Shown piece by piece: positions 3,022 through 46,766 of a stretch of 47,077 nucleotides of DNA. Under the pieces are notes generated by a model, which worked only from the letters and a program-made list of their open reading frames with translations, did no database searches and had not been told where the DNA came from. How positions within the stretch are numbered: the stretch's first letter is position 1; every line of letters starts with the position of its first letter. This stretch comes from Bacteroidales bacterium GP3. GTDB taxonomy: Bacteria > Bacteroidota > Bacteroidia > Bacteroidales > Muribaculaceae. A program made the position numbers and the translations under genes. The stretch is from NCBI GenBank assembly GCA_001701075.1, contig DAAK01000131.1:1-47077 (forward strand), read 5' to 3'.

Positions 3022-5028
3022 TTATTGGTCAGCTATAATATTCAGGAATTCATCTTCCGAAACCAAGGGAATACCGAGTTTCTGGCATTTCTCGTATTTT
3101 GCGGGTCCCATGTTTTCACCGGCAAGTACGAAAGATGTCTTTTTCGAGATACTTCCGACATTTTTTCCTCCGTTGGCTTCAATCATTTCCTTATATTCCT
3201 CACGACTATGATGTGCGAAAGTGCCTGAAATGACGATAGTCTTTCCTTCGAGAGCAGTACCTGCAGGTAGCATTTTCTCTTCGCTCAGCTGCATCTGAAG
3301 ACCAGCAGCTTTCAATCGCTCTATATTTTCGACATTGACCGGATCTCGCAGATAATCATAAATTCCTTGCGCAACTATCGGACCCACATCTGGAATTGCC
3401 TGAAGTTCTTCGACACTCATAGCCTGCATTCTATCCATACTCTTCACGCTCTTGGCAAGGCGTTTTGAGGTTGTTTCGCCGACATTAGGAATCGATAGAG
3501 CATATACTACTCTTTCAAAAGGCACTTCTTTGGAATCTTCAAGACCATTTAGGATTCTTTCGGCACTCTTGTCTCCAAATCTGTCGAGAATGGAAAGTTG
3601 CTCTTTGGTAAGGTCATAAAGATCAGCAGAAGTCTTGACAAGACCTTTTTCGTATAGAAGTTCAGCAGTTTCCTCTCCCACTCCGTCAATATTCATCATA
3701 CGTCGGGCGCAGAAATGCTCAATCCTTCCGGTTATCTGAGGACGGCACCCATACTTGTTAGGACAAATCCATGCTGCGTCACCCTCCTTATTGACGAGAG
3801 GAGTGCCACAAACAGGGCAATGAGAAACAAATTCAAGGGGTTTGCTATCAGGATTACGACGTTCTTTATCCACTCCAGTAATCTTCGGAATTATTTCGCC
3901 GCCTTTCTCTACATATAGCCAATCATTCTCATGGATATCGAGTTCCTTCATAATGTCGGCATTGTGAAGGGAAGCTCGCTTTACAATAGTACCGGAAAGC
4001 AATACAGGCTCAAGATTAGCCACAGGTGTCACTATTCCCATTCTTCCAGTCTCGAAACTGACAAACCGCAACTGGGTGCAAGCATTCTCCGGATTGAACT
4101 TGAAAGCAACAGCCCAGCGAGGAGATTTAGCTGTATAGCCAAGGTTAAGTTGCTGACGTAAAGAATTGACTTTGAATACGAGTCCGTCGGTGGCAACCGG
4201 AAGTTCCTTTCTGGCTACATCCCAATAGTCGATATAGGCATCCACTTCTTCTTCTGTGTGGAGAATCTTCATTTCTCCTGATACCTTGAAACCCCACTTT
4301 CGGGCAGCTTCCATATTGGCGTAATGAGTGTCGTATGGAAGGTTATCAGAAAGAAGATAATAGAAAATGGCATCCAGACGACGTTTCGCCACTTCCCGTG
4401 GATCCTGTGTTTTCAGTGTTCCGCTGGCAGCGTTGCGTGGATTTGCAAAGAGGGGTTCTTCATTGTATTCCCTCTCTTTATTCAGTTCATCAAAAACTTT
4501 CCAGGGCATAAGAATCTCACCCCTAATCTCGAATTTTTCAGGCCAATCTCCTGGTTGAAGCACAAGAGGAATGCTTCTGATGGTCTTCACATTGGCAGTC
4601 ACATCATCACCCTGAGTGCCGTCTCCGCGAGTCACAGCCCTTACAAGTCTACCTCCTTCATAAGTGAGAGAAATGGAAGTGCCATCATACTTCATCTCCC
4701 CTGTGATCTCAAAAGATTCTCCTTCCAATCCTTTCTTAACCCTATCAAACCATTCATCTACCTCTCCTATCGTATAGGTATTGGCAAGAGATAGCATGGG
4801 TCGCTCATGAGTGATATGCTCGAAACCTTTGGTGAGGTCAGAGCCAACACGCTGTGTGGGAGACAGAGGATCATGAAGTTCGGGATGCTCCTTTTCAAGA
4901 GCTTCAAGTTCCTTCATCAGCATATCAAACTCCTTATCGCTGATTTCAGGGGAATTAAGCACGTAATAATTATGATTATGCTTGTTGAGCTCATTGCGAA
5001 GCTCTATGATTCTTTCTTCCGCATTCAT
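3022..5028 (-). CDS. ligA: NAD-dependent DNA ligase
   Basis: KYDG adenylation motif, [17 protein letters not shown]...CPN...C zinc finger, HhH repeats, C-terminal BRCT. Confidence 0.98.
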
Positions 5029-5031
5029 GGC

Positions 5032-5778
5032 TTAGTCTTTTATAAAGTCATATTTTATATCCCATAAAAACAGAGCTTCACCAGGCATCGACTGTCCGGC
5101 AGCGCATCGGTCTTTTCTTTCAATCACGTCTCTAAATTCATCCAATGTCATTTTCCCTCGTCCTATATCAACAAGAGTTCCCACTATAGCCCTTACCATA
5201 TTTCTAAGAAATCGGTCAGCACTTATCGTGAAAACAGCCAAATTTCCTTCCTTCTTCCACTCAGCATGAGTTACCTTGCAAATATTCGTCTTGGCATCAC
5301 TATGGAGCTTAGCGAAAGATGTGAAATCTTCTGTGGTTAGAAGGAGTCGGGCAGCCTCATTCATCTTTTCTAAATCCAATCCGTTGGGACAATGCCAACT
5401 AAGTGGATAAAAGAAAGGAGACTTTTCAAATGAGACAAAGTATTTATAGGTGCGCTCAGTTGCATCAAATCGTGCATGTGCTGAATCGTCAACCTTAAAT
5501 ATATTGTAGATTGCGATATCCTTTCCTACCAGTCGATTGAGCGAAATAAGCAATCTTCCAATTTCCGGAAGTTCGCCGTCATAATCAAAATGGGCGTACA
5601 TGGTGCGTGCATTCACTCCTGTGTCAGTCCTACCTGCTCCAACGATCGACATCGGAACGCGTAAGACTGTGGAAAGAGCTTTTTCCACCTCTTCCTGAAC
5701 GCTCACAGCGTTTGGTTGTATCTGCCAACCGTGAAAGGGAGCGCCGCGATAGCCCAATTTGATGAAATATCGGCTCAT
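5032..5778 (-). CDS. truA: tRNA pseudouridine(38-40) synthase
   Basis: FHGWQIQP, GAGRTDTGVNA (catalytic Asp), HARF, FLRNMVR. Confidence 0.97.
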   Translation of the reverse strand: MSRYFIKLGYRGAPFHGWQIQPNAVSVQEEVEKALSTVLRVPMSIVGAGRTDTGVNARTMYAHFDYDGELPEIGRLLISLNRLVGKDIAIYNIFKVDDSAHARFDATERTYKYFVSFEKSPFFYPLSWHCPNGLDLEKMNEAARLLLTTEDFTSFAKLHSDAKTNICKVTHAEWKKEGNLAVFTISADRFLRNMVRAIVGTLVDIGRGKMTLDEFRDVIERKDRCAAGQSMPGEALFLWDIKYDFIKD

Positions 5779-7676
5779 CAGTATCTTTCAAGATATGTAA
5801 TTCCGTATAGGCCGGATTTATAGATGTTTAGGAACTGACGACCTTCCTCGGCAGTAATCTTGCCTGCTTTCATTGACTTGGATACCCAAGTCTCAAGGTT
5901 GCGGACAAGTTTCTTTGAATTGTATTCCACATAGTCGAGCACATCAGCAACAGGCTCTCCATCAATCACCTGTTCAATCTCATATCCATCCTTATCGCAA
6001 GTGATATGGACAGCGGCTGTATCACCAAACAGATTATGGAGGTCGCCAAGGATTTCCTGATATGCACCGACGAGGAAAACACCTATGTAATATGGTTCTC
6101 CAGGTTTTAGCTGATGCACAGGCAGAGAATGGCTGACACCTTGCGGAGCTACAAAACGATTTATCTTTCCGTCAGAATCGCAAGTTACATCCTGGATGGT
6201 ACATTCATGAGAAGGTTTTTCGTCCAGCCTGCTGATTGGCATTGTAGGGAACATCTGGTCGATTGCCCAAGTGTCAGGAAGTGACTGGAAAAGGGAAAAA
6301 TTGCAGAAATACTTTTCTGGGAGCATACGTGCCACCTTGCGAAGTTCTTCTGGTGGATGCTTCATGCTCTTGGTAATATCATGCACGTCGCGGGCTACGC
6401 TCCAGAAGAGCTTCTCAATTTGAGCTCGTGTGGTGAGATCAAGAAGACCGAGACTGAAGAGTTCAAGCGCTTCTTCTCGAATCTGAAGTGCGTCATGCCA
6501 GTCTTCAAATACACGCGAAGAGTCTATTTTATCCCATATATTATATAGTTCGCGAGTAAGCTCGTGCGCACCTTCTGGAAGTTCGTCATTGTCATTCCAT
6601 ATGGGAAGTTGGGTGGTCTCAAGAGTCTCGATGATAAGCACAGAATGATGTGCTGTCATGGAGCGTCCGGACTCCGTGATAATATTAGGTTGGCGAAGAT
6701 TGTTTTTCTTGCATACGTCCACGAGTGCAGAAACGGCATCGTTTGCATATTCCTGGATTGAATAATTCATCGAATTCTCCCCTGATGAAGAGCGGGTTCC
6801 GTCATAGTCGACTCCCAGTCCCCCACCAATATCGACGAAATCGATGTTGAATCCTGATTTGGAGAGCTGCACATAGAATTGCATAGCCTCCCTCAGGGCA
6901 TTCTTGATACGACGTATCTTGGTGATCTGGCTCCCTATATGAAAATGTATAAGCTTAAGGCACCCCTTCATCTTATTTTTATCGAGGAATTCAAGAGCAT
7001 CAAGAAGTTCGCTGGAGTTAAGACCAAATTTGCTGACATCGCCTCCTGATTCTTCCCATTTGCCACTGCCAGCGGAAGTCAGCTTTATGCGTATACCGAT
7101 ATTGGGTTCTACCTTCAGACGCTTAGCTACTTTCATTATAAGTTTCAGCTCATTGAGTTTTTCTACAACAAGGTAAATCCTCCTGCCCATCTTTTGCGCA
7201 AGAAGAGCGAGCTCAACATAATCTTCGTCTTTATAGCCATTGCATACCACGAGCGAATTCTCATGGGTGTTGACAGCAAGCACAGCATGAAGTTCTGGTT
7301 TAGATCCAGCCTCAAGTCCGATATTATATTTGTTTCCATGGCTAACAATTTCTTCTACCACTTGACGCATCTGATTGACTTTGATGGGATACACAAGATA
7401 GCTCTGACCCTCAAATTCGTATTGCTTGCTTGCTGTCTTGAAGCAACTCGTTATTTTTCTAATCCTGTCGTCAAGGATGTCAGGAAACCGAAGCAGCATT
7501 GGAGCAGATATATCGCGAAGTTTAAGCTCATCGAGCACCTGGCGTATATCTACAGGAGCATATCCGGCTTTTGGAGTCACCTGAACATGTCCCTGCTCAT
7601 TAATGCTGAAATAGCTGAGTCCCCACCCCTGAATATTATAGAGCTCACTTGAGTCTTCTATTCTCCACTTCCTCAT
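5778..7676 (-). CDS. speA: Biosynthetic arginine decarboxylase
   Basis: YPIKVNQ (PLP Lys), GLEAGSKPEL, HFHIGSQ, DIGGGLGVDYDG, TCDSDG, GAYQEILGDLHNLFG. Confidence 0.97.
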   Translation of the reverse strand: MRKWRIEDSSELYNIQGWGLSYFSINEQGHVQVTPKAGYAPVDIRQVLDELKLRDISAPMLLRFPDILDDRIRKITSCFKTASKQYEFEGQSYLVYPIKVNQMRQVVEEIVSHGNKYNIGLEAGSKPELHAVLAVNTHENSLVVCNGYKDEDYVELALLAQKMGRRIYLVVEKLNELKLIMKVAKRLKVEPNIGIRIKLTSAGSGKWEESGGDVSKFGLNSSELLDALEFLDKNKMKGCLKLIHFHIGSQITKIRRIKNALREAMQFYVQLSKSGFNIDFVDIGGGLGVDYDGTRSSSGENSMNYSIQEYANDAVSALVDVCKKNNLRQPNIITESGRSMTAHHSVLIIETLETTQLPIWNDNDELPEGAHELTRELYNIWDKIDSSRVFEDWHDALQIREEALELFSLGLLDLTTRAQIEKLFWSVARDVHDITKSMKHPPEELRKVARMLPEKYFCNFSLFQSLPDTWAIDQMFPTMPISRLDEKPSHECTIQDVTCDSDGKINRFVAPQGVSHSLPVHQLKPGEPYYIGVFLVGAYQEILGDLHNLFGDTAAVHITCDKDGYEIEQVIDGEPVADVLDYVEYNSKKLVRNLETWVSKSMKAGKITAEEGRQFLNIYKSGLYGITYLERY

Positions 7677-7690
7677 TTTTATCTATTTTA

Positions 7691-7726
7691 TGGTTTTACT
7701 GGTTTAAAAGGTTTAAGGGTTTTGAG
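7691..7726. repeat. Degenerate ~9-bp tandem repeat at the ssb-speA junction
   Basis: TGGTTTTAC TGGTTTAAA AGGTTTAAG GGTTTTGAG; includes the ssb stop codon. Confidence 0.5.
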
Positions 7727-8045
7727 TTTGCTGGGAGCGACCTAAGATTTCAAACACCTTAGCGTAAATTTCTGTCCGTTTGCGTGCAATATTGAACTTG
7801 TCGGTATACTGACGGGTTCGCAGCGAACCCTCAATATAGAGTTTCATTCCTTTCCTTAGATAGCGCTCTGCATAGCGTGCTTGCTCCCCTGTCATCACTA
7901 TATTGTGCCATTCTGTCACTTCCGAGTTGCCACGCAGTTCATTGGTAGCAAGAGAAAAGTAAGCTACTGGAAAATCCTTTTCAGGATATCTTACATCAGG
8001 ATCTCCACCAATATTCCCGATAAGTATAACTTTGTTTACGCTCAT
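7713..8045 (-). CDS. ssb: Single-stranded DNA-binding protein, short form without acidic C-terminal tip
   Basis: MSVNKVILIGNIGGDP...FSLAT...TEWHNIV...YLRKGMKLYIEGSLRTR OB fold; likely ATG at 8045; ends RSQQTQNP. Confidence 0.93.
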   Translation of the reverse strand: MSVNKVILIGNIGGDPDVRYPEKDFPVAYFSLATNELRGNSEVTEWHNIVMTGEQARYAERYLRKGMKLYIEGSLRTRQYTDKFNIARKRTEIYAKVFEILGRSQQTQNP

Positions 8046-8050
8046 ATCAA

Positions 8051-8971
8051 TCAAAATTTATGTGCCTTAAGGTATAACCCAGTGCGCTCGTGAAGTCCAA
8101 AAAGAAGATTCATAATGTGCACTGCATCACCGGCACCACCTCTCATGCGGCTATCAGCTACTACCGTCACGGTAAGGCGATCTGCAGTCTGCTTCTGAAG
8201 AGTGACAAGGGTCTTCTGAGTTCCTTCCACTTCATAACCAGGCATAGCACTTGACACCATGAAAGTGAAATTATGATCATCATAGCAATCCTCAAAGACT
8301 TTGAATACTTCTGAAATTTCAAGTGAACAAGGAAGGTCGATCACAACCTTCAGTCCTCTGTCGGACACTTCTTCTTCAAGCCGATGCAATTTGATATCTC
8401 CATTGAAAGAGATTTGTGTCTTTCTGAGAACATAAAGAATCTCTTGACGCACCATATTGATCTTCTCCTCAGTATCTATATCAGCAGGACATGCATAATC
8501 CACTATGATATCTCCTTTTAGGAGAAGATGCCTTGCAAGTGGATACAGACCTATGACTGCTGCTACTGCCACCGAACGAGGCACAACAGCCCGCTTGCAA
8601 CCACGCACGAGTTGCTTACGATTAGTCTCCGGAAGTCCATAGGCCATTTCAAGAGCTTCAAAGTCAAGCGAAGGGCAATGCGACATATCGATGATTCTCA
8701 AATCAGGCCATCGGTCCGTGTTCATCCTGAAGCGGTCGGCTACATCTGAATGGGCATCTATGAATATGACGTCGAGCATCTGAGGATTGATGTCGGGGGA
8801 AAACTCAAGATCACATTCACCTGCCAATCCATGATGTACGGAAGCTACCGTGCGTCCTACTTTTCCAGGTGCAAAAGCACTGGCAAGCTCTACATCAGGA
8901 TGATTGACCAGAATTCTTATCAATTCTCCAGCCATGGCCGTATCGGCACCTGCAATTCCTACTTTTATCAT
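8051..8971 (-). CDS. ArgC (N-acetyl-gamma-glutamyl-phosphate reductase) homologue with degenerate active site
   Basis: GELIRILVNHP, IIDMS, YGLPETNR and AVHIMNLLFGLHERTGL follow the Bacteroidetes ArgC scaffold, but NPGC reads VPRS. The ORF is intact. Confidence 0.85.
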   Translation of the reverse strand: MIKVGIAGADTAMAGELIRILVNHPDVELASAFAPGKVGRTVASVHHGLAGECDLEFSPDINPQMLDVIFIDAHSDVADRFRMNTDRWPDLRIIDMSHCPSLDFEALEMAYGLPETNRKQLVRGCKRAVVPRSVAVAAVIGLYPLARHLLLKGDIIVDYACPADIDTEEKINMVRQEILYVLRKTQISFNGDIKLHRLEEEVSDRGLKVVIDLPCSLEISEVFKVFEDCYDDHNFTFMVSSAMPGYEVEGTQKTLVTLQKQTADRLTVTVVADSRMRGGAGDAVHIMNLLFGLHERTGLYLKAHKF

Positions 8972-8976
8972 GCTTC

Positions 8977-9459
8977 TTAGAAATTATTCATAGGGAGTAA
9001 AAAAGAAAGAAGTTCCTTCGCTTTTTCATGAGTCACCCCTTCCCTAAGAACAATGAAGACAGTATTGGCTCCTGCTATTGTGCCAGCTATCTCTGGGGCG
9101 TTCAGCATATCTATATCATATGCAATTCCAGAGGCATAACCGTTTCTGGTGAGCATGACTCCTATATTATTTGAAAACTCAAGCGAAATGAATCCATTAC
9201 TGGCATGACGTGAAAAATCTACAGATCGCCTGCCCGAAGTCATCTTTGCTGTCGATGCATCCGGAAGCATATAGGCATAAGCACCATGATCAAGTGGCAC
9301 TTTTGTAGTCTTCAACATCTTAAGATCGCGAGAAAGAGTTGCTTGAGTTACGTAAATTCCTCTTTCCGCAAGCATTTTGAGAAGTTCTTCTTGGCTTCCG
9401 ACATTATTATTTTTTATAATCTCTATCAGATGCTCAATTCTGTCGTTTTTTCTACTCAT
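8977..9459 (-). CDS. argR: Arginine repressor family regulator with variant effector pocket
   Basis: SQEELL...TQATLSRDLK DNA-binding helix; C-terminal GTIAGANT in place of GTIAGDDT. Confidence 0.92.
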   Translation of the reverse strand: MSRKNDRIEHLIEIIKNNNVGSQEELLKMLAERGIYVTQATLSRDLKMLKTTKVPLDHGAYAYMLPDASTAKMTSGRRSVDFSRHASNGFISLEFSNNIGVMLTRNGYASGIAYDIDMLNAPEIAGTIAGANTVFIVLREGVTHEKAKELLSFLLPMNNF

Positions 9460-9462
9460 CTC

Positions 9463-10101
9463 TTATGGCAATTTATCAGCACTGTTGTGCCTTCTGTCAA
9501 TTTCCATTTTTATTTCTCCAGCTTTTTCATAGTCTTCATTTTTCACAGCCTTTTCCATAAGACGCTGAAGACTCTCCAAAGTTTCGTCGGCATAAGAATA
9601 TGTGCCGGGATTTTTCACTCTTTCAATTGCTGTCCTGACAGGGATTGACTGTCTGGAAGAAGTATGTAGCTGTCTGGCAGCAAATGCATCCCTTTCAATT
9701 CCGCATTTGTCAATAAGACTCCTGAAAGTGAAGATTGGGGCATCTGTTCTCATAGCCAATGCGATAGCATCACTCGAACGCGCATCCAGAACCCTTTTTT
9801 CATCATCCTTTCTAAAAGACACATCAGCTGTGAATATTCCATTTTCAAGCTGTTTTATGACTACAGATTCAATCACAATTCCAAAAGAATCAAGAATCTC
9901 TGATGTAAATTCATGTGTCAGAGGTCTGGGTGTCTTAATCTTCTGTAGCATGCATTCAATCGATTGTGCTTCATTGTAGCCTATGATTATAGGAAGCCTG
10001 CGATTGCCATCAGCCTCTTCCAGAACCATGGCATACATGCCGTTTTCTATCTGATTGTATGTAATTCCGACTACTTTGAGCCGAACCAAATCATTTTCCA
10101 T
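9463..10101 (-). CDS. Bifunctional nuclease (DUF151) domain protein with C-terminal UvrB/UvrC motif
   Basis: LPIIIGYNEAQSI, PRPLTHE, DARSSDAIALA; C-terminal AVKNEDYEKAGEIK. Confidence 0.9.
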   Translation of the reverse strand: MENDLVRLKVVGITYNQIENGMYAMVLEEADGNRRLPIIIGYNEAQSIECMLQKIKTPRPLTHEFTSEILDSFGIVIESVVIKQLENGIFTADVSFRKDDEKRVLDARSSDAIALAMRTDAPIFTFRSLIDKCGIERDAFAARQLHTSSRQSIPVRTAIERVKNPGTYSYADETLESLQRLMEKAVKNEDYEKAGEIKMEIDRRHNSADKLP

Positions 10102-10122
10102 TGTCTGAAACTTGAAAATTAA

Positions 10123-11208
10123 CTATTTCTTTGTAATCATTCCCGAACCAAGACAAATCTTCTTATCCGGAGTATATATTATTGAATATTGTCCCGGAGC
10201 TATTCCCTGTATGTCTCGTTCAGACTCGATAACATATCGATTATCATCAGTGCGATACAGTACAGCATCGAAAAATTCAGGAGTATGCCTCGTCTTGCAT
10301 GAAATCCGTATAGCCCCTTCCTCATTCTTTTCAAACATATCAGTCTCAAATGGGTCTACCGTGATCCAATGCATTTCGTCCATATATATCACTTTGCCAT
10401 ACTGAAGTTTAGTGTCATAGCCATGACTTACGTAGACCACATTGTCACGAATATTTTTCCTGACGACAAACCATGGTCCACCTCCGAGTCCAAGACCCTT
10501 TCGCTGACCAATTGTATAGAACCAATAACCTTTATGTTCTCCTATTTTCTTGCCGGTTTCTATCTCTATGACCGGACCTTTCTTAGTGCCGAGCTTACGC
10601 TCCAGGAAATCGCTATAGTCTATCTTTCCAAGAAAACAGATGCCTTGACTATCCTTTCTTGTGGCATTGGGGAGTTGAGCTTCCTTGGCGGCCGCCCTAA
10701 CCTCTTCCTTTGTCATGTCTCCCAAAGGAAAAATGATATGCGACAATTGCTTATAGCTGATTTGTGCGAGGAAATCGGTCTGGTCCTTAATCGGATCGGG
10801 AGCAGTAGCAAGCCAGTATTTTCCATCTTTTTCTAACACCTTGGCATAATGTCCGGTGGCTGTCTTGTCGAATTCATGACCCCAACGGTCTTCAAAAAAG
10901 CCGAATTTAATTATCTTATTGCACATCATGTCAGGATGTGGTGTAAGGCCCTCTTTGACTGTATTGAGAGTATATTGCATCACATATTCCCAATATTCCT
11001 CATGTAGAGAGACCACCTTGAATGGCAGACCATATTTCTTGGCTATAAGAGTGCACATCTCTATATCTTCTTCAGCTGTGCACTCACCCTCTCCATTATC
11101 CATACTTATACGGATATAAAAGAGATGCAAGTCATGCCCTTGCTTATAAAGACGGTCCACAGTCACTGCACTGTCAACTCCTCCTGATATTAAAACAGCT
11201 ATCTTCAT
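10123..11208 (-). CDS. mnmA: tRNA 2-thiouridine(34) synthase
   Basis: SGGVDS PP-loop, [34 protein letters not shown]; likely ATG at 11208. Confidence 0.97.
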
Positions 11209-11717
11209 CACACCTCTTCAAGTTCATCCTCGCTATGATCTGACGAATGCAGAAGATGAAGCGACAGAAAATAGTCAACAGAAATCTTCCCGGGACCAAC
11301 AAGAATAAGGAAGAAATAAATACCAAGAAACATAATCGGGAGATAGCCAGGTTGCTCCCAACTTAACTGGTAGGAGGCTTTTGTAGCTACATCATGGAGC
11401 AGATGATATTCGGCAAATGTCATAGCAATGAAAGGAGGGAGTATCATCACTCTTGTCAAGAATCCCGCCATTATAAAGACACTGCATACTATCTCTATAC
11501 ATATCATTATCCACAGTGAAGCTTCAGACGACATGCCTAATACCGATGGGAAAGTGTCCGCAAGCATTGAGGCATCATTTATCTGGCGGATACCGAATTG
11601 CAGAAGCATTATTCCTACAAAAAGACGTAGAAAGAGCCTACCGAGATTTGTATAACTATATCCCGTACTTGTAACATAAATCTTTTTGGGAAGACCGAGT
11701 ACATTCTTTCTATACAT
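11208..11717 (-). CDS. DoxX family membrane protein
   Basis: [31 protein letters not shown]; several hydrophobic helices. Confidence 0.85.
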
Positions 11718-11751
11718 AACCTATCAGTTTCTAAAAATATAATGTTTCTAA

Positions 11752-12678
11752 TCAATTTATCAAAGATAAGGTTCTCGACATGGCTTCCATGACACTTATG
11801 TGTTTGCCTATGATTTTTCCATCAGAGCCGATCACGTAAATTTCCGGGATTTCCCTGATGTCATAGATGTCATCTATGGATTCGGAAGCACCTACTGTCC
11901 AGTTTTTAGGAAAGTCTGTCACATTCTCTTCCCATCCGGCATCAGGATCTGGGATAATAAAAAGAACATTGATCTTGCCATCAGAGACAGCCTTGTTGAA
12001 AGTAATGTTGGATTGCATCCGCAATTTCCCCATCCTGCACTCATCACAATCAGGATCTCCAAAGATTATGATAGTTGGGGTTGACATTGGAAAATACTGG
12101 GCAGTATCACCGTTTGGCCGCACGAAATCAAAGGATGCCGGAGTTTTTCCAATCAAAGAGTTCTCGAGTTGTTTGAGCTGATGCTCATAGCGTGCACGCT
12201 TAGTCTTTGGGAACTTCTTATTAGCCAAAGCTGAGCTTAGCATGCGGGCATATAATTCGTCAATCCAGAAATCTGCACGCGGACCATAGATGGTTTCCTC
12301 TGCCGCCTTTATCATCTGATAGGTAAGCATAGGATTTTTCTGTAGATTCTTCATCATCTTGTCTACTGCAGCCGTCACAACGTCCTTGTCTGCGTATTGG
12401 ACTGTGGTCGCATATACATTAAATGCATGATTGAGTTTGTTTTGATCTACAGCCTCCTTGGTTTTCAAATCAAGTGGATTCCAGAAGTTGACTGCGAGCC
12501 AGTTGCATTTTTCACTAAACTCATTCAATTCTTCCGGAGCTACAGGATATTCAAAAAGTGGATCAACATACATGACTCCCGGCTCTATGAGTTCAGTGGA
12601 ATCATTAGTCACCTGAGCGGAAGCCATTAAACTGCTTCCCATCAAGGCTAAAGCCGATATCAATATCTTTTTATTCAT
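11752..12678 (-). CDS. Secreted thioredoxin-like protein (DUF5106-type)
   Basis: Signal peptide ending ASA-Q; C-terminal thioredoxin fold with DPDCDEC and YDIREIPEIYVI. Confidence 0.7.
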   Translation of the reverse strand: MNKKILISALALMGSSLMASAQVTNDSTELIEPGVMYVDPLFEYPVAPEELNEFSEKCNWLAVNFWNPLDLKTKEAVDQNKLNHAFNVYATTVQYADKDVVTAAVDKMMKNLQKNPMLTYQMIKAAEETIYGPRADFWIDELYARMLSSALANKKFPKTKRARYEHQLKQLENSLIGKTPASFDFVRPNGDTAQYFPMSTPTIIIFGDPDCDECRMGKLRMQSNITFNKAVSDGKINVLFIIPDPDAGWEENVTDFPKNWTVGASESIDDIYDIREIPEIYVIGSDGKIIGKHISVMEAMSRTLSLIN

Positions 12679-13531
12679 GATTTTTCATTTGATTGATAAG
12701 AGAATCAAGAGGTCGTCTGATTATTTTACGAAGCTTCCAGCCTCTATTTTTCATTTCATCTTCAATAAAAGGTTTGAGTTCATTTGCAACTGATCCCACA
12801 AAACCTATTCCCTCTTCTTTAAGTTCCCTTTCGGAATAAGAAACGAATTCCCTATCGAAAAAACATCTTATCTGTGTCTCAACAATAGAATTAATGTATG
12901 GATTGGAAATATTGTCAATGATAAACGGCATAAATCCTGATATCCATCTATTTGGGGAGGGTTTCCTATAAAGATGATTCACCACGTCGCTTACCGACAG
13001 GGAATACCTATTTTCAAATTGCTCTATGATATCTTGTGGAGCTATTTTCTTATAAACATCGGCTAACAAACGCCTGCAGAAAGCCACTCCTCCACCTTCA
13101 TCATCAAGAAGATATCCGAGGGATGCAGATTTCCTGTCGATTTCCTTGCCATTATAGTGACAAGAATTGCTGCCTGTGCCCATTATGCACGCGATGCCTG
13201 GTTCAGACCCCAGCAATGCCATTGCCGCTCCAGTCATATCACTGTCTGCCTTGATATCACGGCATGAAAATGACTCCGATAGAATTGCCTCCATCTTTCC
13301 TGCTATGGAAGGAGACCCAATGCCAGCTCCGAAAAAACGGATTTTGTCGAAAGACTCACCCAGAGAAGCTCGCACTAAGCGAAGCTCCTCTTCTATCATA
13401 TCAGTGTCGTGATGCAAAGGACTAATGCCTATACCAGAGTAAAATTCTTCCTCGTCACCGGATGTTTTGCCGAGTGTGAGTTTTACCCAATCTGTCTTAG
13501 TAGCGCCTGCATCAGCTATAAGTATTTTCAT
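12671..13531 (-). CDS. BadF/BadG/BcrA/BcrD-type ATPase (N-acetylglucosamine kinase-like)
   Basis: LIADAGATKTDW, GIACIMGTGSNSC, LGYLLDDEGGG, IGFVGSVA. Confidence 0.85.
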   Translation of the reverse strand: MKILIADAGATKTDWVKLTLGKTSGDEEEFYSGIGISPLHHDTDMIEEELRLVRASLGESFDKIRFFGAGIGSPSIAGKMEAILSESFSCRDIKADSDMTGAAMALLGSEPGIACIMGTGSNSCHYNGKEIDRKSASLGYLLDDEGGGVAFCRRLLADVYKKIAPQDIIEQFENRYSLSVSDVVNHLYRKPSPNRWISGFMPFIIDNISNPYINSIVETQIRCFFDREFVSYSERELKEEGIGFVGSVANELKPFIEDEMKNRGWKLRKIIRRPLDSLINQMKNHE

Positions 13532-13555
13532 TTTCTTATTTTTGTATATTCACCA

Positions 13556-13563
13556 CAAAATTA
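13556..13563 (-). promoter_or_regulatory. -7 promoter box for the long minus-strand run (kinase to ligA)
   Basis: CAAAATTA on + equals TAATTTTG on -, 25 nt upstream of the ATG at 13531. Confidence 0.55.
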
Positions 13564-13678
13564 ATAAAAACGGACTAATTATACAAATAATATAAATTGA
13601 ACTTTGATTATATTGGTTCTAAAAATATAAATTTTATCTTTTTTTATGAATTTTCATTGTCTTTATCTTATTTTTTGT

Positions 13679-13686
13679 TAATTTTG
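13679..13686 (+). promoter_or_regulatory. -7 promoter box for the CAZyme cluster
   Basis: TAATTTTG, with TTG about 19 nt upstream. Confidence 0.55.
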
Positions 13687-13747
13687 CAACAAGCAAAAAT
13701 AACAGTTCACATTTCAGGCGAACAAATCACAACCTTAAATTTATAAC

Positions 13748-14458
13748 ATGAGAACAAATCAACTAATCAAGCGGAGCATGCTATATGCTCTTCTGGCAAG
13801 TGGCTTTGCCTCAGCTCCATTCTTTGCATTGGGAAAAGGAAACTCAGACGATGGCCTGAAACCCTATTTCTCAACACCTGAGACAAAAAGTGCCACGCCG
13901 AATGCCGATGGTTTTATTGGGAGATGGCTTATGCTCGAACCTATAGATAAACCCAATAGAAGCAATACTGTCTTCACTGACAGCTATTTGAAAGAGGCTT
14001 TCAATACGGAATATTTTCCCGGGCAGTTTGCTTCCTTGCCAAAGGCGGGGCAGAAAGTGAAGGTTGGGAAACAAACTCTTAAATGGCATTCCCTTGACAG
14101 CAACCTTTTCAATGTGAAACTTTTCAGGTTCGCAACAGGGCTTGAAAAGCAATATTACGGTGTCCTTTTCTGGGTTGTCACCGCTATCGATTGCGAGGAG
14201 GATATTCCGGATGTCAGAATGTCGGTTGGCTCAAATTCCGCTTCTATGTGGTGGCTTAATGGTGAGGAGGTAGTACTTCTTTCCGGCGACCGCAGAATGG
14301 TGATGGACGACTGTCTGTCGAAACGCCTTACTTTAAAAAAGGGTCGGAATATCATAAGAGGAGCCATCATTAATGGTCCCGGTATGAGTGATTTCTGCCT
14401 ACGCTTCATCAACGAAGATGGAAAACCAGTCACCAACTTCACAATCAGTAATCTTTAA
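13748..14458 (+). CDS. Secreted protein of unknown function in the xylan cluster (beta-rich, carbohydrate-binding-like)
   Basis: N-terminal signal-like segment; GFIGRWLMLEP...WWLNGEEV...LTLKKGRNII; no recognisable catalytic motif. Confidence 0.6.
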   Translation: MRTNQLIKRSMLYALLASGFASAPFFALGKGNSDDGLKPYFSTPETKSATPNADGFIGRWLMLEPIDKPNRSNTVFTDSYLKEAFNTEYFPGQFASLPKAGQKVKVGKQTLKWHSLDSNLFNVKLFRFATGLEKQYYGVLFWVVTAIDCEEDIPDVRMSVGSNSASMWWLNGEEVVLLSGDRRMVMDDCLSKRLTLKKGRNIIRGAIINGPGMSDFCLRFINEDGKPVTNFTISNL

Positions 14459-19288: not shown

Positions 19289-20818
19289 ATGGAAATAAAA
19301 GACAAGTCTACATCCCAACATAAGAAAAAGGAGTCCACTCAAACATCACTGAAATCTTTCAGACGATTGTTGGCTGTGATCTCAATTCTTCTGATTACTC
19401 CACTATTCCTCGACTTTACAGGAACATGGCAAGCTCTTTTTGGATGGATGGCGAAGATTCAGTTTCTTCCGGCAGTGCTTTCCTTAAATGTTCTTGTGAT
19501 TTTGGCGTTGATTATCCTTACCTTGCTTATGGGGCGCCTATATTGCTCTGTGATTTGTCCTTTAGGTATCATGCAGGATGGTTTCGGATGGTTTGGTAAG
19601 AAAGCTAAGAAAAACAGATATTCTTATTCCAAACCTAAAAATATTCTCCGATATACATTCCTCGGCATCATGGTGATAGCCATAATATCAGGAATCAATT
19701 CAATGGTAGCCCTTCTTGCTCCCTATAGCGCATATGGCAGGATTGTATCAAGTATTCTTAAGCCTGTTTGGATTTGGGGCAACAATATTCTTGCTTCATG
19801 GGCAGAGCAACATCAAAGCTATGCTTTCTATAATGTGGAGTATTGGCAAAATGGCTATGGCGTGCTGATTGTAGCGGTTGTCACATTGATTGCTTTGGCT
19901 ATACTTGCATGGCGCAATGGCAGGACATATTGCAATACCATTTGCCCTGTCGGAACAATTCTTGGGTTCTTTTCGCGTTTCTCAATTTTCCGAATTGTTA
20001 TCGATAAGTCGAAGTGTGTTGATTGTAAACTTTGTTCACGCAATTGTAAGTCATCATGTATTGATATTTCTAATCATGATATTGATTATTCACGCTGTGT
20101 GTCTTGTTTCGATTGTATTGGCAAGTGCAATGAGGGAGCTATTTCATATAAGTATGTAGGTATAAAAACAGTAAAGTCAATTTCTGGGAAAGAAAATATG
20201 GATGGTTCTCGCCGTCAATTCCTGTCTGTGGCGGCTCTTGTCGGAACTACTACAGCTCTTTCTGCAGCTGACAAGACCGTAGATGGAGGTCTTGCTGCAA
20301 TAGAAGACAAAAAGATACCGGAACGCAAGACTCGTATCGTCCCTCCTGGAGCGATAAGCTTGAGAAACCTTCATAATCACTGCACGGCATGCCAGCTTTG
20401 TGTCTCAGCTTGTCCGAACGGAGTTTTGAGGCCGATGATGGATTTAGAAAACTTCATGCAGCCAGAATCTTCCTATGAGCGTGGATATTGCCGACCTGAA
20501 TGTACGCGTTGTTCAGATGTTTGCCCAACTGGTGCTATCAGACCAATTGATACTGCCGACAAGTCTTCGATTCAGATCGGACACGCAGTTTGGGTTAAGG
20601 CCAATTGTGTGCCTCTCACAGATGGTGTGGAATGTGGCAACTGCGCACGCCACTGCCCCACTGATGCCATTACTATGGTGGAGGCCGGTAATGGACATAA
20701 GATACCGGCTATAAACACGGAAAGATGCATCGGTTGTGGAGCTTGCGAAAATCTATGCCCGGCTCGTCCTTTTAGTGCCATTTATGTAGAAGGTCATGAG
20801 AACCATCGGATTATTTAA
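19289..20818 (+). CDS. Membrane polyferredoxin (NapH/MauN-like membrane part fused to NapG/MauM-like ferredoxin)
   Basis: About five TM helices, GRLYCSVICPLG and YCNTICPVG, six CxxCxxCxxxC-type motifs, internal SRRQFLS; likely ATG at 19289 (TAACTTTG -7 box at 19243-19250). Confidence 0.88.
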   Translation: MEIKDKSTSQHKKKESTQTSLKSFRRLLAVISILLITPLFLDFTGTWQALFGWMAKIQFLPAVLSLNVLVILALIILTLLMGRLYCSVICPLGIMQDGFGWFGKKAKKNRYSYSKPKNILRYTFLGIMVIAIISGINSMVALLAPYSAYGRIVSSILKPVWIWGNNILASWAEQHQSYAFYNVEYWQNGYGVLIVAVVTLIALAILAWRNGRTYCNTICPVGTILGFFSRFSIFRIVIDKSKCVDCKLCSRNCKSSCIDISNHDIDYSRCVSCFDCIGKCNEGAISYKYVGIKTVKSISGKENMDGSRRQFLSVAALVGTTTALSAADKTVDGGLAAIEDKKIPERKTRIVPPGAISLRNLHNHCTACQLCVSACPNGVLRPMMDLENFMQPESSYERGYCRPECTRCSDVCPTGAIRPIDTADKSSIQIGHAVWVKANCVPLTDGVECGNCARHCPTDAITMVEAGNGHKIPAINTERCIGCGACENLCPARPFSAIYVEGHENHRII

Positions 20819-43931: not shown

Positions 43932-45116
43932 TTAGAATTTTGCTCCCTTGGCACCTTTGACACCACCTTTTCCGCCTCCGCCAAGAGCGAAGATATTGCG
44001 GTCGTAGCTGAAAGTCTTGCGTTCCACTTCACGCTTGCGCTTGAGAGCAAGTTGAACGAGCTTGTCCATAAGGTCAGCAAATTTTATGCCAGTTGCTTCC
44101 CATAGATAATAAGAGAGAGATCCGGGGATCGTGTTGATTTCGTTGACGTAGATCTGACCGTCGCTTTCATCGATCATCACATCTACTCGGCTTACCCCAT
44201 GGCAAGAGAGAACACGGAAAGTCTCGCAGGCGAGATGCTGAACACGTTCTGAAGTTTCTTTCGGTAGATCAGCCGGAATTCTTTTCTCACTGGCAGCCAT
44301 ACCCTCGTTTCCACCGCGATATTTTTCATCATAGCTGAGGAAATCACCTTTAGAAATAGGTTCCTCGCATACAGAAGGCTGATAATCGTCGCAATCACCG
44401 AGCACAGAACAGTTGATCTCTTTCATCTTCTCGAGCATATGCTCAACGATGATGCGCTGTGAGAATCGGCAAGCGGTGTCGACTTTCTCAATCAGTGACT
44501 GACGGTCGGCAGCCTTACCTATACCCACGCTTGAACCGAGGTTAGCAGGTTTTACAATTACCGGATACCCTATCTTTGACTCAATTCTCTCAATAAGTTC
44601 ATCGCGCTTGCGGCTCCATTCCTTGTCGGTAAACCAGACGTAGTCTACAACAGGAACTCCGGATTCGCGAAGTATCATTTTCATGGTGATCTTATCCATG
44701 CCGTTGGCCGAAGCAAGCACGTCACATCCCGCATAAGGAATACCTATCAGATCAAGCAGGCCTTCGATTGTGCCATCTTCACCGTTAGCACCGTGAAGCA
44801 CTGGAATCATTACATCGAGCGTTGCAAAAACATTTGAGCCAAACATCGGTTTATGACAGCGATAGAGGTTGAAGTCACCGTGATTGGGCTGCATGTAGAC
44901 CTCCTCACATTTTTTTATCAGAGAAGCTGTGTCACGGTAGGCTTTAAGATCGAGCAATGCCTCTCCGCAATACCAGCATCCCTCTTTGGTGATATATATC
45001 GGGGTAACATCATAAGAGTCACGGTCAATTGCCGCCATGGCCTGTGAGGCCGAAATAACGGATATTTCATGTTCGGTGGAGCGGCCGCCAAACAATACGC
45101 CTATTCTTGTTTTCAT
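43932..45116 (-). CDS. ddl: D-alanine--D-alanine ligase
   Basis: GGRSTEHEIS, LHGANGEDG, GMDK, KPANLGSSVG, SYDEKY, NEINTIPG. Confidence 0.96.
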   Translation of the reverse strand: MKTRIGVLFGGRSTEHEISVISASQAMAAIDRDSYDVTPIYITKEGCWYCGEALLDLKAYRDTASLIKKCEEVYMQPNHGDFNLYRCHKPMFGSNVFATLDVMIPVLHGANGEDGTIEGLLDLIGIPYAGCDVLASANGMDKITMKMILRESGVPVVDYVWFTDKEWSRKRDELIERIESKIGYPVIVKPANLGSSVGIGKAADRQSLIEKVDTACRFSQRIIVEHMLEKMKEINCSVLGDCDDYQPSVCEEPISKGDFLSYDEKYRGGNEGMAASEKRIPADLPKETSERVQHLACETFRVLSCHGVSRVDVMIDESDGQIYVNEINTIPGSLSYYLWEATGIKFADLMDKLVQLALKRKREVERKTFSYDRNIFALGGGGKGGVKGAKGAKF

Positions 45117-45149
45117 TTTATGATAGTATGAGTCAAATAGTTTACTTGA

Positions 45150-46766
45150 TTATTTAAAGGTGTCGGGGAGATCGTTTTCATAAAGCACTACATCACCCTT
45201 GCGGAGCATGGGAGCCAATACCTGCTGGCTCTCGGCAAAACTGCGCACTTTTATCAGCTGACATTTCGGGGCGTCGCCTTTTTCGGCGAGCACCTCCTCG
45301 ATGCCCGAACAGATGGCCTCGCGGTTATAGTTGCCTACAATCACGGCGATGTCGGCCGAACGGGCTATATGACGGCCGAACTCGCGGTTGAGTTCCTCCT
45401 GAAGTGAGCCAAGTTCTATCATGCCGGGAGTGATAACAATGCGGCGCCCTCCGGTCATTGAGGCAAGCACATCAAGAGCCATCTTCGACCCTGCCGGATT
45501 GGAATTGAAAGCGTCGTCGAGAATTGTTATTCCGCCGGGAGTGTGTTTAAGGCTGAGACGATGTTCCACAGCCTCGATCTGCTCCACACCATATTGAATT
45601 TCTTTATAGCTCATTCCCTCCTGAAGCGCCATAACCACCGCGCCGAGAAGATTGGAAATATTACATTCTCCCACCATACGGGTAGTAAGCGTGAAGTCGG
45701 TACCATCAGTACCTTTTACCCTAAACGTGCTTCCACCCGGGCTATATACAATATCGGTAGCTATGAAATCCGCTCCTTCGGTATTGGTCACGGCATATCT
45801 TAGGGTCTTTACATTTTCAACTCTACGATTGGCTACATACGGGAAATCGTTATTAACAATCGCCACACCATCGGCGGGAAGAGAATCCACAAGCTCGAAC
45901 TTTGTGCGCTGCACATTCTCAATTGTCTTAAACGACTCCAGATGCTGCTCACCCACAGCAGTAAGGATAGCCGACGAAGGATGCACGAGATCACATATCT
46001 CCTTGATGTCACCGATATTCTTTGCACCCATCTCAACAATAAAAATCTGATGATAGGGCTTAAGCATTTCCCTCACCGTGCGCACGACACCGAGGGTGGT
46101 ATTATAACTGCCCGGGGTCATAAGCACATCGAATTTCTGGGATAGAATCGTGTTGAGGAAATGTTTGGTGGAGGTTTTGCCATAGCTGCCTGTTATGCCT
46201 ATGACCTTGAGCTGAGGCATTGATTTGAGAATCCGAGCAGCATCATCAATATATCCCTGATTGATATGTTTTTCAATCGGGCTAAGAATCATGAGTGAGC
46301 ATACTGTCACTACATGCGACAGCACATAAAGAGCGATTGCAGCAAGCGAAACGCCATAAAGAATATCCTCAGGCCGTGTAAGTCCGAACCCAAGCGCCAC
46401 TCCTCCGGTCAGCAACAGGCATATCAGACAATCTACCGCCATGATACGGCGTGCGCGGGGAGTCATCACCAATGGCTTCTTGTATTTCTTTTTCAGCAAC
46501 ACAATGAAGTTGCACACGGCAAACAGCAGCATTACCCACACGGCCCAGTCGACCGAAGCCCATACCACCTGCGACAGAAGGAATACCGCCATGCCGAGCA
46601 AACGGGGGGTGGATGTGGTGTCGCCGCTCTGCTTAATCCAGTTCATATACCGCTCGCGACGATATGAATTTTGCTGAAGCATGGTGAGGTCGCGCCTCAG
46701 CTCGGCATAAAGATTGGCTAAGGCAGCCAGTGCGGTCAGGATATATATTATCGTAAGAAAGCTCAT
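45150..46766 (-). CDS. murF: MurF (UDP-MurNAc-tripeptide--D-Ala-D-Ala ligase) with N-terminal membrane helices
   Basis: GITGSYGKTSTK, SYNT, VEMGA, HLE, DDAFNSNP, PGMIELG; about 160-aa hydrophobic N-terminal extension. Confidence 0.9.
   Translation of the reverse strand: MSFLTIIYILTALAALANLYAELRRDLTMLQQNSYRRERYMNWIKQSGDTTSTPRLLGMAVFLLSQVVWASVDWAVWVMLLFAVCNFIVLLKKKYKKPLVMTPRARRIMAVDCLICLLLTGGVALGFGLTRPEDILYGVSLAAIALYVLSHVVTVCSLMILSPIEKHINQGYIDDAARILKSMPQLKVIGITGSYGKTSTKHFLNTILSQKFDVLMTPGSYNTTLGVVRTVREMLKPYHQIFIVEMGAKNIGDIKEICDLVHPSSAILTAVGEQHLESFKTIENVQRTKFELVDSLPADGVAIVNNDFPYVANRRVENVKTLRYAVTNTEGADFIATDIVYSPGGSTFRVKGTDGTDFTLTTRMVGECNISNLLGAVVMALQEGMSYKEIQYGVEQIEAVEHRLSLKHTPGGITILDDAFNSNPAGSKMALDVLASMTGGRRIVITPGMIELGSLQEELNREFGRHIARSADIAVIVGNYNREAICSGIEEVLAEKGDAPKCQLIKVRSFAESQQVLAPMLRKGDVVLYENDLPDTFK

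Follow-up and report, generated by a model that had tools for sequence, protein, structure and literature searches.

The 47,077-nucleotide stretch of Bacteroidales bacterium GP3 (Muribaculaceae) analysed here, referred to as the window, carries a gene for a protein, ArgC-like or ArgC', that descends from the arginine-biosynthesis enzyme ArgC, has lost its catalytic features and is maintained by selection. This dead ArgC, kept under purifying selection, is the unusual element of the locus, and its sequence fits best with a pseudoenzyme of a so far undescribed kind, derived from ArgC. In the reading that we favour, with a probability of roughly two in three, the locus is the remnant of an arg operon whose dead ArgC was fixed as a non-catalytic binding protein and has been kept by selection. 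As the protein is intact across the genus, even in genomes without arginine synthesis, it has probably taken on a new role in this gut bacterium and its congeners, one other than catalysis.

Organization of the locus

The ArgR-like, ArgC-like, SSB and SpeA genes (Table 1) are co-directional with gaps of 5, 5 and 36 nt, and the coordinates given in the initial annotation were confirmed, as was its statement that the window holds no further arginine-biosynthesis gene (none among 37 non-overlapping ORFs of at least 100 aa). The four genes are part of a co-directional housekeeping block of 11 minus-strand genes that extends from 3022 to 13531, the gaps ranging from -8 to 36 nt, and co-direction and short spacing are nothing peculiar to them. 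The Bacteroides-type -7 promoter word is TAnnTTTG, and inspection of the sequence some 25 nt ahead of the block's first gene revealed TAATTTTG, which fits this word and is a candidate promoter for all 11 genes. The gene encoding the BFN and UVR-motif protein is a member of a genus-specific neighbourhood and lies outside the arg relic.

Table 1. Features of the window at the ArgC-like locus
Feature	Position	Strand	Description
ArgR-like gene	8977..9459	-	160 aa, PF01316 + PF02863
ArgC-like gene	8051..8971	-	306 aa; predicted ArgC-derived pseudoenzyme
Short SSB gene	7713..8045	-	110 aa from ATG at 8045; OB fold only
SpeA gene	5778..7676	-	632 aa; canonical biosynthetic arginine decarboxylase
Bifunctional-nuclease-domain (BFN) + UVR-motif protein	9463..10101	-	directly upstream of ArgR, 3 nt gap
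Candidate promoter of 11-gene block	13556..13563	-	TAATTTTG, fits TAnnTTTG

An ArgC without its catalytic residues

The ArgC-like protein scores 46.5 bits against PF01118 (the N-terminal Semialdhyde_dh domain) and 89.6 bits against TIGR01850 (N-acetyl-gamma-glutamyl-phosphate reductase), under the equivalog cut-off of 233.6. In a search of the genome with the latter profile its match was split in two (47.5 and 35.6 bits), and only model positions 1-175 and 248-339 are covered, 176-247 being unmatched. Alignment shows that the catalytic Cys is gone (PRS vs PGC in canonical ArgC), that the glycine-rich dinucleotide motif GxxGYxxGE is spoiled (GADTAMAGE vs GGAGYTAGE), and that the central segment has a deletion of about 20 residues, with the remainder unalignable. 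PMC8220418 describes Tyr211, His217, Ser186 and Gly187 as lining the substrate pocket of the Mycobacterium tuberculosis ArgC, and motif resemblance suggests that the missing segment is where they would lie. Cys is found at the PGC site in 0/30 ArgC-like sequences of the genus, where the nucleophile position varies between S, T, V, A and P, with Ser or Thr in the subclade of the GP3 genome; it is also missing from 15 of 17 second ArgC copies in other genera.

The scaffold is predicted to have survived. An AF2 model (pLDDT 90.8, pTM 0.90) gave ArgC/LysY structures as its best Foldseek matches (E 1e-25, TM 0.76-0.85), and the modelled protein keeps the two-domain ArgC fold. Compared with the characterised ArgC/LysY proteins (TIGR01850; PDB 1VKN, 5EIO, 2I3A), it therefore shares the fold (TM 0.83 to 1VKN) and has a related C-terminal motif (DxRMRGGAGDAVHxMNL vs canonical DNLxKGAxGQAxQNxN), but it differs in the three losses described above, in its length (about 322 residues in ArgC), in its profile score and in being retained by genomes that lack the arginine pathway. 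Among 32 sequences, 30 columns are invariant and 44 nearly so, and the protein has conserved motifs of its own, YGLPEINR and DxRMRGGAGDAVHxMNLLFGL. The features expected of a pseudoenzyme are found together: the catalytic residues are lost, and the ORF, the predicted fold and purifying selection are kept.

Probable descent from the family arg operon

The GP3 genome carries a full GNAT-argG-argC-argD-argF'-argB-argE-argH operon without argR (type B) on contig C59, the ArgC of which scores 276 bits against TIGR01850, above the cut-off. Type A loci of the family begin with argR-(GNAT)-argG-argC in 10/10 cases and have the order argR-GNAT-argG-argC-argD-(proC)-ssb in 5/10. The 16 ArgCs of types A and B retain PGC without exception, as do 24 of 26 ArgC rows from other families (25 distinct sequences, the G104 protein having been entered twice). 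Since the order ArgR-ArgC'-SSB is collinear with the Muribaculaceae arrangement argR-GNAT-argG-argC-argD-proC-ssb, it reads as a remnant of that operon, and the neighbourhood, initially taken for a repurposed four-gene module, is explained by this descent. The second ArgC copies of other genera adjoin gltX in 11/17 loci, often with kdtA, and the type A argR is likewise located beside gltX (L086, L088).

The ArgC-like protein is nearer to type A ArgC, at 39-46% over the N-terminal half, than to the type B ArgC of its own genome (34% and 31%). In a quick maximum likelihood tree the type B ArgCs formed one clade (SH-aLRT 98) nested among the ArgCs of other families, and the ArgC-like proteins of the genus formed another (99) outside type B. 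As this was a quick search without bootstrap, in which long branches lead to the divergent copies, descent of the ArgC-like gene from type A argC is likely rather than proven.

Retention under selection

The ArgC-like gene is intact in 142 of 151 genomes of the genus, a sample that includes many incomplete MAGs, and in 63/63 of the high-quality ones, with no in-frame stop among the 142 genus matches listed (37-92% identity). Its median pN/pS is 0.133 (153 pairs), an upper bound as synonymous sites are saturated, so that dN/dS can only be bounded; in deeper pairs the ratio climbs to 0.5, where pN is saturating as well. The values for the neighbouring genes are 0.163 (ArgR), 0.100 (SSB), 0.042 (SpeA) and 0.263 (BFN gene), and the suggestion that the two arg-derived proteins are intact ORFs under selection, not decaying, is borne out by the ratios for ArgC' (0.13) and ArgR (0.16). 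Outside the genus, a single in-frame stop interrupts the matched stretch in 4/32 full-length matches, so that some genera may be losing the copy and the genus of GP3 may be the only one to maintain it.

Retention is independent of arginine synthesis, as argC was found in just 17 of the 63 high-quality genomes, the identical 17 that carry argH, and the other 46 keep the ArgC-like gene without either. The loss of the arg pathway that had been proposed to accompany the locus thus holds for most of the genus but fails for the GP3 genome itself, with its full operon on C59. Nor does retention depend on ArgR: no ArgR match was found in two genomes of the genus (G329, 98% complete; G368, 89%), in which the ArgC-like gene is kept, adjoining the BFN gene and SSB. 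These two are not sisters on the ArgC tree and have no unusually long branch.

The ArgR-like protein

Both ArgR domains, the winged-helix DNA-binding one at the N-terminus (PF01316, 70.7 bits) and the C-terminal one for oligomerisation (PF02863, 65.5 bits), are present in the ArgR-like protein, which resembles ArgR/AhrC of E. coli, B. subtilis and M. tuberculosis in domains, length, domain order and SR motif region, and its DNA-binding wing is intact (VTQATLSRDLK invariant; T38-K47 invariant in 32 orthologues). It differs from these repressors in its score against TIGR01529 (111.3 bits, under the equivalog cut-off of 130.45), in heading no arg operon in the GP3 genome, where it is the sole ArgR match, and in having Ala-Asn (GTIAGANT) in place of the arginine-binding Asp pair of solved ArgRs (GTICGDDT or GTIAGDDT). 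By alignment, the lost first Asp is the equivalent of E. coli Asp128, which binds the guanidino group of the ligand according to PMC2880562.

That ArgR and ArgC' have both shed defining residues had been correctly recognised, but the loss in ArgR had been seen as targeted. The first Asp is found in 0/29 sequences of the genus and in 0/10 type A family sequences, the ArgRs at the head of complete arg operons with catalytically intact ArgC included (lost in 10/10), and DD is retained in 27/29 ArgRs from other Bacteroidales families; judged from these alignments, the loss is family-wide in Muribaculaceae. In the genus, PR[ST/V] ArgC-like proteins accompany the ArgRs whose second position is Asn (24/29), and P[ST]x ones accompany those with Ser-Asp (5/29), and the proposed co-occurrence of a Cys-less ArgC with a non-DD ArgR was indeed observed there. 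An ARG-box-like word, chosen by eye from type A promoters, occurs in 6/10 type A and 3/6 type B upstream regions; none, with up to two mismatches, was found upstream of the arg operon of GP3 or in the window between 5000 and 14000. Lactic acid bacteria offer a parallel, in that some of their ArgR paralogues lack the Asp pair and work jointly with an ArgR that binds the ligand.

SSB and SpeA

The SSB scores 104.4 bits against TIGR00621 (cut-off 53.95), which represents the OB-fold ssDNA-binding domain, and orthologue alignment places its start at ATG 8045, not at TTG 8054. It ends 7-10 residues past the OB fold, without a disordered linker or an acidic C-terminal tip of the D-D-D-I-P-F type. 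The tail-less SSB had been counted as part of the candidate module; the tail is missing in 38 of 39 family SSB sequences, no SSB match other than the tail-less one was found in 10 of the 11 family genomes searched, and the gene at this locus is the only SSB match in the GP3 genome. It is the family's ordinary SSB, apparently its only one. SpeA (874.5 bits against NF003763, cut-off 369; 787.4 bits against TIGR01273, cut-off 624.1; plus three Pfam domains) is found at the locus in 28/29 loci of the genus and adjacent in 0/35 loci examined from other genera, and its linkage to the relic was thus seen in this genus alone. Both are ordinary housekeeping genes, SSB being here by ancestry and SpeA by a genus-level rearrangement.

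Proposed history and alternative explanations

The favoured history would begin, in the lineage of GP3, with a second, argR-less operon, represented here by that of C59, taking over arginine synthesis, after which the old operon would have lost GNAT-argG and argD-proC. The old argC has shed its nucleophile Cys, the central substrate/His segment and the NADPH-binding glycine motif, and at that point further decay would have stopped, the copy being fixed as a folded, non-catalytic pseudoenzyme. Purifying selection has retained it genus-wide, with or without the arginine pathway, and also in the two lineages without ArgR. The catalytic losses and the maintenance by selection are shown by the sequence data, as is the descent from an arg operon; beyond these, we infer that a binding role is the most likely one, in which the protein would act by binding a ligand or a protein partner rather than by catalysis, using the retained ArgC scaffold together with the YGLPEINR and DxRMRGGAGDAVHxMNLLFGL motifs.

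The partner could be ArgR itself, the two forming a regulator in which an ArgR unable to bind the guanidinium group of arginine receives its signal from an ArgC-derived ligand-binding subunit, a proposal that we regard as tentative and rather unlikely. The genes are 5 nt apart and adjacent in 26/29 loci of the genus, as they are at four loci from other genera (L068, L073, L074, L078) and at L075 from another family; ArgR lacks the guanidino-contacting Asp; and the variants of the two proteins track each other. The two genes were already neighbours in the ancestral operon, however, so that their adjacency is no independent evidence, the co-distribution stems from one or two evolutionary events, and the Asp is equally lost from the ten ArgRs that stand beside an intact ArgC in complete operons. 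Moreover, the persistence of ArgC', on branches of ordinary length, in the two lineages without ArgR implies that the two need not form a strict pair, although they may act jointly. A bolder and more doubtful form of the idea starts from the loss, in Muribaculaceae ArgR, of the Asp that holds the guanidinium group, and proposes a split arginine sensor in which the dead ArgC would be the subunit that senses the signal. If this were true, the remodelled pocket would have been recruited in those lineages whose old argC became redundant, its ligand would be arginine or an acetylated intermediate, the signal would be relayed to ArgR or to some other partner on the DNA, and the spending of imported arginine, including via the adjacent speA, would be controlled in this way in largely arginine-auxotrophic gut bacteria.

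It is improbable that the protein is still an enzyme with an altered chemistry or substrate that dispenses with the thiol, for example by using Ser in place of Cys. The ArgC fold, the conservation in altered form of motifs flanking the canonical pocket, and the Ser or Thr of the GP3 subclade would fit such an activity, but the nucleophile site is unconserved across the genus, an Asp lies within the dinucleotide motif (GADT), and the Tyr/His segment of the pocket is missing. Slow decay, with the ORF open by chance or because translation must reach the essential ssb 5 nt downstream, would suit a redundant copy that has lost its catalytic residues and the stops seen in other genera. Coupling to ssb selects against stops and not against amino-acid change, however, and the pN/pS of ArgC', similar to that of ArgR and SSB, the uninterrupted reading frames among the genus matches listed, the invariant blocks and the confidently predicted fold make decay quite improbable. 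Least credible by far is a single system of ArgR, ArgC', SSB and SpeA, such as a complex with an architectural role on DNA or a switch tied to polyamines: the four are contiguous in 25/29 loci of the genus (singly, SSB in 29/29, SpeA in 28/29 and ArgR in 26/29), but they are embedded in the 11-gene block, the SSB is the only one matched in nearly all family genomes searched, it already stands behind the arg operon in genera with a catalytically intact ArgC, and SpeA adjoins the locus in none of the other genera examined.

Parallels to an ArgC-derived pseudoenzyme

HisZ, which is related to histidyl-tRNA synthetase as a paralogue and serves to regulate HisG, is a pseudoenzyme derived from a biosynthetic enzyme, and like the ArgC-like protein it is the paralogue of a pathway-related enzyme that has lost catalysis and retained selection. 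HisZ acts on a known partner inside its pathway, whereas the ArgC-like protein has outlived the pathway. USG-1 of E. coli (usg), encoded upstream of truA, is a protein of unknown role in the semialdehyde-dehydrogenase family. It is Asd-like, whereas the window protein is ArgC-like, and at the level of the superfamily, to which the likeness is limited, both are orphan members in a housekeeping operon with truA. The truA gene of the window lies two genes downstream of the ArgC-like gene.

Sequence and predicted fold of the ArgC-like protein

The ArgC-like protein of the window is best read as an undescribed pseudoenzyme that has been kept by selection after the loss of its chemistry and, in most species, of its pathway. 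It scores 89.6 bits against the ArgC equivalog model TIGR01850 (cut-off 233.6), matching model positions 1-175 and 248-339 only. The residue losses claimed in the initial annotation are real: in alignment with the canonical ArgC of the same genome, PRS stands where the latter has PGC, GADTAMAG replaces GGAGYTAG, and some 20 residues are missing opposite the canonical GSTGAG...YKPFTHQH segment. In M. tuberculosis ArgC the substrate pocket is described as lined by Tyr211, His217, Ser186 and Gly187 (PMC8220418), residues that, judging from motif resemblance, would map to the missing segment. The predicted structure is of high confidence (pLDDT 90.8, pTM 0.90), and its top structural matches are ArgC and LysY (1VKN, E 1e-25, TM 0.83). 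At least 174 clusters (50% identity) match the protein at E 1e-30 or better; the nearest clusters in the ESM Atlas are unnamed Bacteroidota proteins with a Semialdhyde_dh domain, none of which points to a function, and those family members that a source does name are hypothetical proteins. A search of open-access papers and preprints found no description of the protein or of the traits reported here.

Coordinates of the features discussed (window positions unless a genome and contig are given; G000 is the genome of the window)
Feature	Position	Strand
HicB-family antitoxin-like ORF	471-809	+
Eleven-gene block: 286-aa ORF, DUF5106 protein, DoxX, MnmA, bifunctional-nuclease/UVR protein (BFN), ArgR-like, ArgC-like, SSB, SpeA, TruA, LigA	3022-13531	-
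SpeA	5778-7676	-
SSB	7713-8045	-
ArgC-like protein (306 aa)	8051-8971	-
ArgR-like protein (160 aa)	8977-9459	-
BFN	9463-10101	-
Mur-ligase family gene (538 aa) and D-Ala-D-Ala-ligase family gene (394 aa)	43932-46766	-
Perfect ARG-box-like word	G000:C53:937-950	
Eight-gene arg operon without argR (also loci L094-L098)	G000:C59:11293-19539	-
Leader of that operon	G000:C59:~19560-19640	-
ArgR-dead ArgC-ProC locus (L075)	G104:C1:803329-816252	

Maintenance of the gene

Of 151 genomes of the genus, 142 carry the ArgC-like gene, among them all 63 with a completeness of 90% or more; no listed match contains a stop, and identities to the window protein run from 36% to 92%. Selection was measured as raw pN and pS over 18 close sequences (153 pairs); NG86 dS was saturated for nearly all pairs, and deeper pairs were uninformative. 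Among the ArgC-like pairs pS was 0.63-0.90, itself saturated, and pN 0.04-0.18, giving a median pN/pS of 0.133, beside 0.163 for ArgR, 0.100 for SSB, 0.042 for SpeA and 0.263 for BFN; because pS is saturated, these values are upper bounds on omega. The dN/dS comparison proposed earlier for the two arg-derived proteins, run in this form, thus indicates purifying selection on both. Of the aligned columns in 32 ArgC-like sequences, 30 are invariant and 44 nearly so, and the conserved motifs include YGLxExNR and DxRxRGGAGDAVHxMNLLFGLxExTGL.

Simple decay is rejected by the intactness of the gene in the 63 most complete genomes together with its low median pN/pS. It could also be supposed that the ORF is kept open through translational coupling to ssb alone, but amino-acid change would then not be constrained as observed. 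Beyond the genus maintenance is less clear-cut: in 4 of 32 full-length matches the matched part is interrupted by a single in-frame stop. A further candidate role, in a heteromer with canonical ArgC, is rejected by the persistence of the gene where canonical ArgC is absent. ArgC above the cut-off is present in 55 of the 151 genus genomes and ArgH in 57; among the 63 of high quality, 17 have argC and the identical 17 have argH, and the ArgC-like gene is kept in the 46 that have neither. These 46 appear to be without de novo arginine synthesis, and arginine auxotrophy seems to be the majority state of the genus. The subclade of the window genome mostly retains the pathway, and a complete operon on contig C59 (GNAT-argG-argC-argD-argF'-argB-argE-argH, without argR at its head, canonical ArgC 276.3 bits) shows that arginine biosynthesis has not been lost from the window genome. 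The proposed association of the dead ArgC with pathway loss accordingly holds for the 46 genomes but not for the one in which it was first noticed.

Strict dependence on ArgR was weighed in the same way. Neither genome G329 (pathway present, 98% complete) nor genome G368 (89%) has an ArgR match anywhere, yet both keep the ArgC-like gene, which argues against such dependence; their ArgC-like sequences are not sisters in a quick maximum-likelihood tree, which suggests that ArgR was lost twice in the genus. A role for the pseudoenzyme as an ArgR-linked sensor is considered unlikely, and the favoured reading is a binding role, for a ligand or a protein, on the retained ArgC scaffold. A structure prediction for the complex of ArgR and the ArgC-like protein returned no verdict (score 0.00, no controls) and weighs neither for nor against their pairing.

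Arginine operons and probable descent of the relic

To follow the descent of the gene, loci of further Muribaculaceae genera were compared. Where a genome has just one ArgC (about 290-307 bits), it carries an argR-headed operon, argR-GNAT-argG-argC (type A), which in 5 of 10 loci continues with argD-(proC)-ssb, the last gene encoding the same kind of short SSB as in the window; gltX or gltX-kdtA lies upstream in both loci that extend that far. Genomes with the argR-less eight-gene operon (type B) carry a second ArgC copy elsewhere, as seen in all five examined and in the window genome. In 11 of 17 other-genus loci this copy adjoins gltX, often as gltX-kdtA and sometimes with ArgR between, which is the old type A position. 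The TIGR01850 scores of the second copies form a gradient between 252 and about 70 bits; the catalytic-motif Cys is kept in 2 of the 17 and is replaced by S, N, E or A, or lies in an altered motif, in the other 15. The window genes for ArgR, the ArgC-like protein and SSB are collinear with type A minus GNAT-argG and argD-proC, and the ArgC-like protein is 39-46% identical to type A ArgC (N-terminal half) as against 34% and 31% to its own type B ArgC.

A quick maximum-likelihood tree was built from 90 ArgC sequences (three duplicate rows dropped, SH-aLRT support only). In it, type B ArgCs form one clade (SH-aLRT 98) nested among those of other Bacteroidales families, type A ArgCs form a grade beside other-family ArgCs, the ArgC-like proteins of the genus form one clade (SH-aLRT 99), and the divergent second copies fall outside the canonical cluster, on long branches of poor resolution. 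The nesting of the type B clade suggests that this operon may have been acquired by transfer, replacing the argR-headed operon of the family. In the proposed course of events the argR-less operon would have displaced its predecessor, leaving the old argC behind beside argR and ssb. Cys-less homologues in two other Bacteroidales families may be parallel relics: in G104 an ArgR with its DD intact is followed by a dead ArgC (PDAS) and ProC, with no canonical ArgC match found in that genome, and in G103 (locus L032) an ArgC has a Cys-to-Ser change. As a side observation, the leader of the C59 operon, otherwise AT-rich, holds a GC-rich stretch after a TAACTTTG promoter-like word and ahead of the first gene; the complementary ends of this stretch (TTGCCC...GGGCAA) may form a leader hairpin or attenuator.

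The neighbouring SSB and ArgR-like proteins

The acidic C-terminal tip of E. coli SSB recruits many partner proteins; the tail-less window SSB is an OB fold only. The short SSB is the sole match to the SSB equivalog model TIGR00621 in the window genome, in 4 of 5 near-complete genomes of the genus and in all five type A genomes searched, which represent five further genera of Muribaculaceae. These SSBs are about 105-120 residues long, without a disordered linker or acidic tip (window; L084, L087, L090, L091, L093; genus loci L035-L063), and 38 of 39 aligned SSBs stop just past the OB fold, the exception at locus L074 having a long tail with a D-V-V-P-F-type tip. It is thus the ordinary SSB of the family, inherited as the last gene of the arg operon, and not a special partner.

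No ArgR match other than the ArgR-like protein was found in the window genome. The protein contains the two Pfam domains of ArgR and scores 111.3 bits against an equivalog cut-off of 130.45. Its ligand residues are altered, as first reported, with GTIAGANT in place of the GTICGDDT or GTIAGDDT of solved ArgRs. In E. coli ArgR the first Asp, Asp128, is described as forming a salt bridge to the guanidino group of the ligand, and Asp129 as helping to hold its alpha substituents (PMC2880562). Among 29 ArgRs of other Bacteroidales families the pair is DD in 27, SD in one and ND in one, whereas the first Asp is absent in all Muribaculaceae ArgRs examined: type A ArgRs heading complete operons have AD (9 of 10) or TD (1 of 10), and the 29 of the genus have AN (17), SN (5), VN (1), GN (1) or SD (5). 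Because ArgRs of complete operons already have this change, loss of the first Asp is, on this distribution, a family trait older than the dead ArgC. The second change, Asp to Asn, is specific to part of the genus and tracks the distribution of ArgC-like proteins with PR[ST/V], a pattern that comes down to one or two events. The invariant DNA-binding region indicates that DNA is probably still bound.

An ARG-box pattern with six central W gave no relevant match. A second ARG-box-like pattern, TGMAT-W4-ATKCA, derived by visual inspection of type A argR promoters, occurs in 6 of 10 type A upstream regions (shuffles mean 1.6, max 5) and in 3 of 6 type B ones (mean 0.7, max 3); with up to two mismatches it is absent upstream of the arg operon of the window genome and from window positions 5000-14000. 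Genome-wide there are three perfect matches, situated within genes or ahead of an aspartokinase-like ORF. The match ahead of that ORF, on contig C53, is about 70 nt away from it and is closely followed by a TAAATTTG word; being one of only three, it may be a chance match.

Significance

Muribaculaceae, a family of Bacteroidales abundant in the gut, have seen little genetic work. Three linked traits emerge at the level of the family or genus, namely a selected ArgC pseudoenzyme, an ArgR without the guanidinium-binding Asp, and loss of argC and argH in most species of the genus searched. Annotation pipelines pass over the first as a hypothetical protein and label the altered ArgR and the SSB as ordinary, and automatic pathway calls that count the ArgC-like gene as argC would predict false arginine prototrophy. 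Should the pseudoenzyme regulate or bind, it would be a clean natural case of an operon relic put to new use, and would offer a way into how these gut bacteria handle arginine and polyamines.

The gene block and its neighbourhood

The window genome is 80.5% complete at 2.84 Mb, the window being its contig C93. The eleven genes of the block are separated by -8 to 36 nt, and some 25 nt ahead of the block's first gene is a TAATTTTG word, a putative Bacteroides -7 element (TAnnTTTG). The coordinates first given for the four genes and the gaps of 5, 5 and 36 nt from ArgR-like through ArgC-like and SSB to SpeA were confirmed, counting SSB from the ATG at 8045, the start used by its orthologues. SSB follows the ArgC-like gene in all 29 genus loci and SpeA follows in 28, the remaining locus being cut short by the end of its contig. 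Upstream of the ArgC-like gene lies ArgR in 26 of these loci; of the other three, one is truncated and two have BFN as the immediate neighbour. SpeA itself is canonical throughout (874.5 bits, cut-off 369). The four-gene module proposed in the initial annotation is rejected, resolving into common ancestry (ArgR, ArgC-like, SSB) and a genus-level neighbourhood (SpeA, BFN); that interpretation is partly supported, in that both arg-derived proteins are intact, altered and under selection. Elsewhere in the window, a HicB-family antitoxin-like ORF (PF05534, 73 bits) lies near the start, and a Mur-ligase family gene adjoins a D-Ala-D-Ala-ligase family gene, probably an ordinary pair of cell-wall genes.
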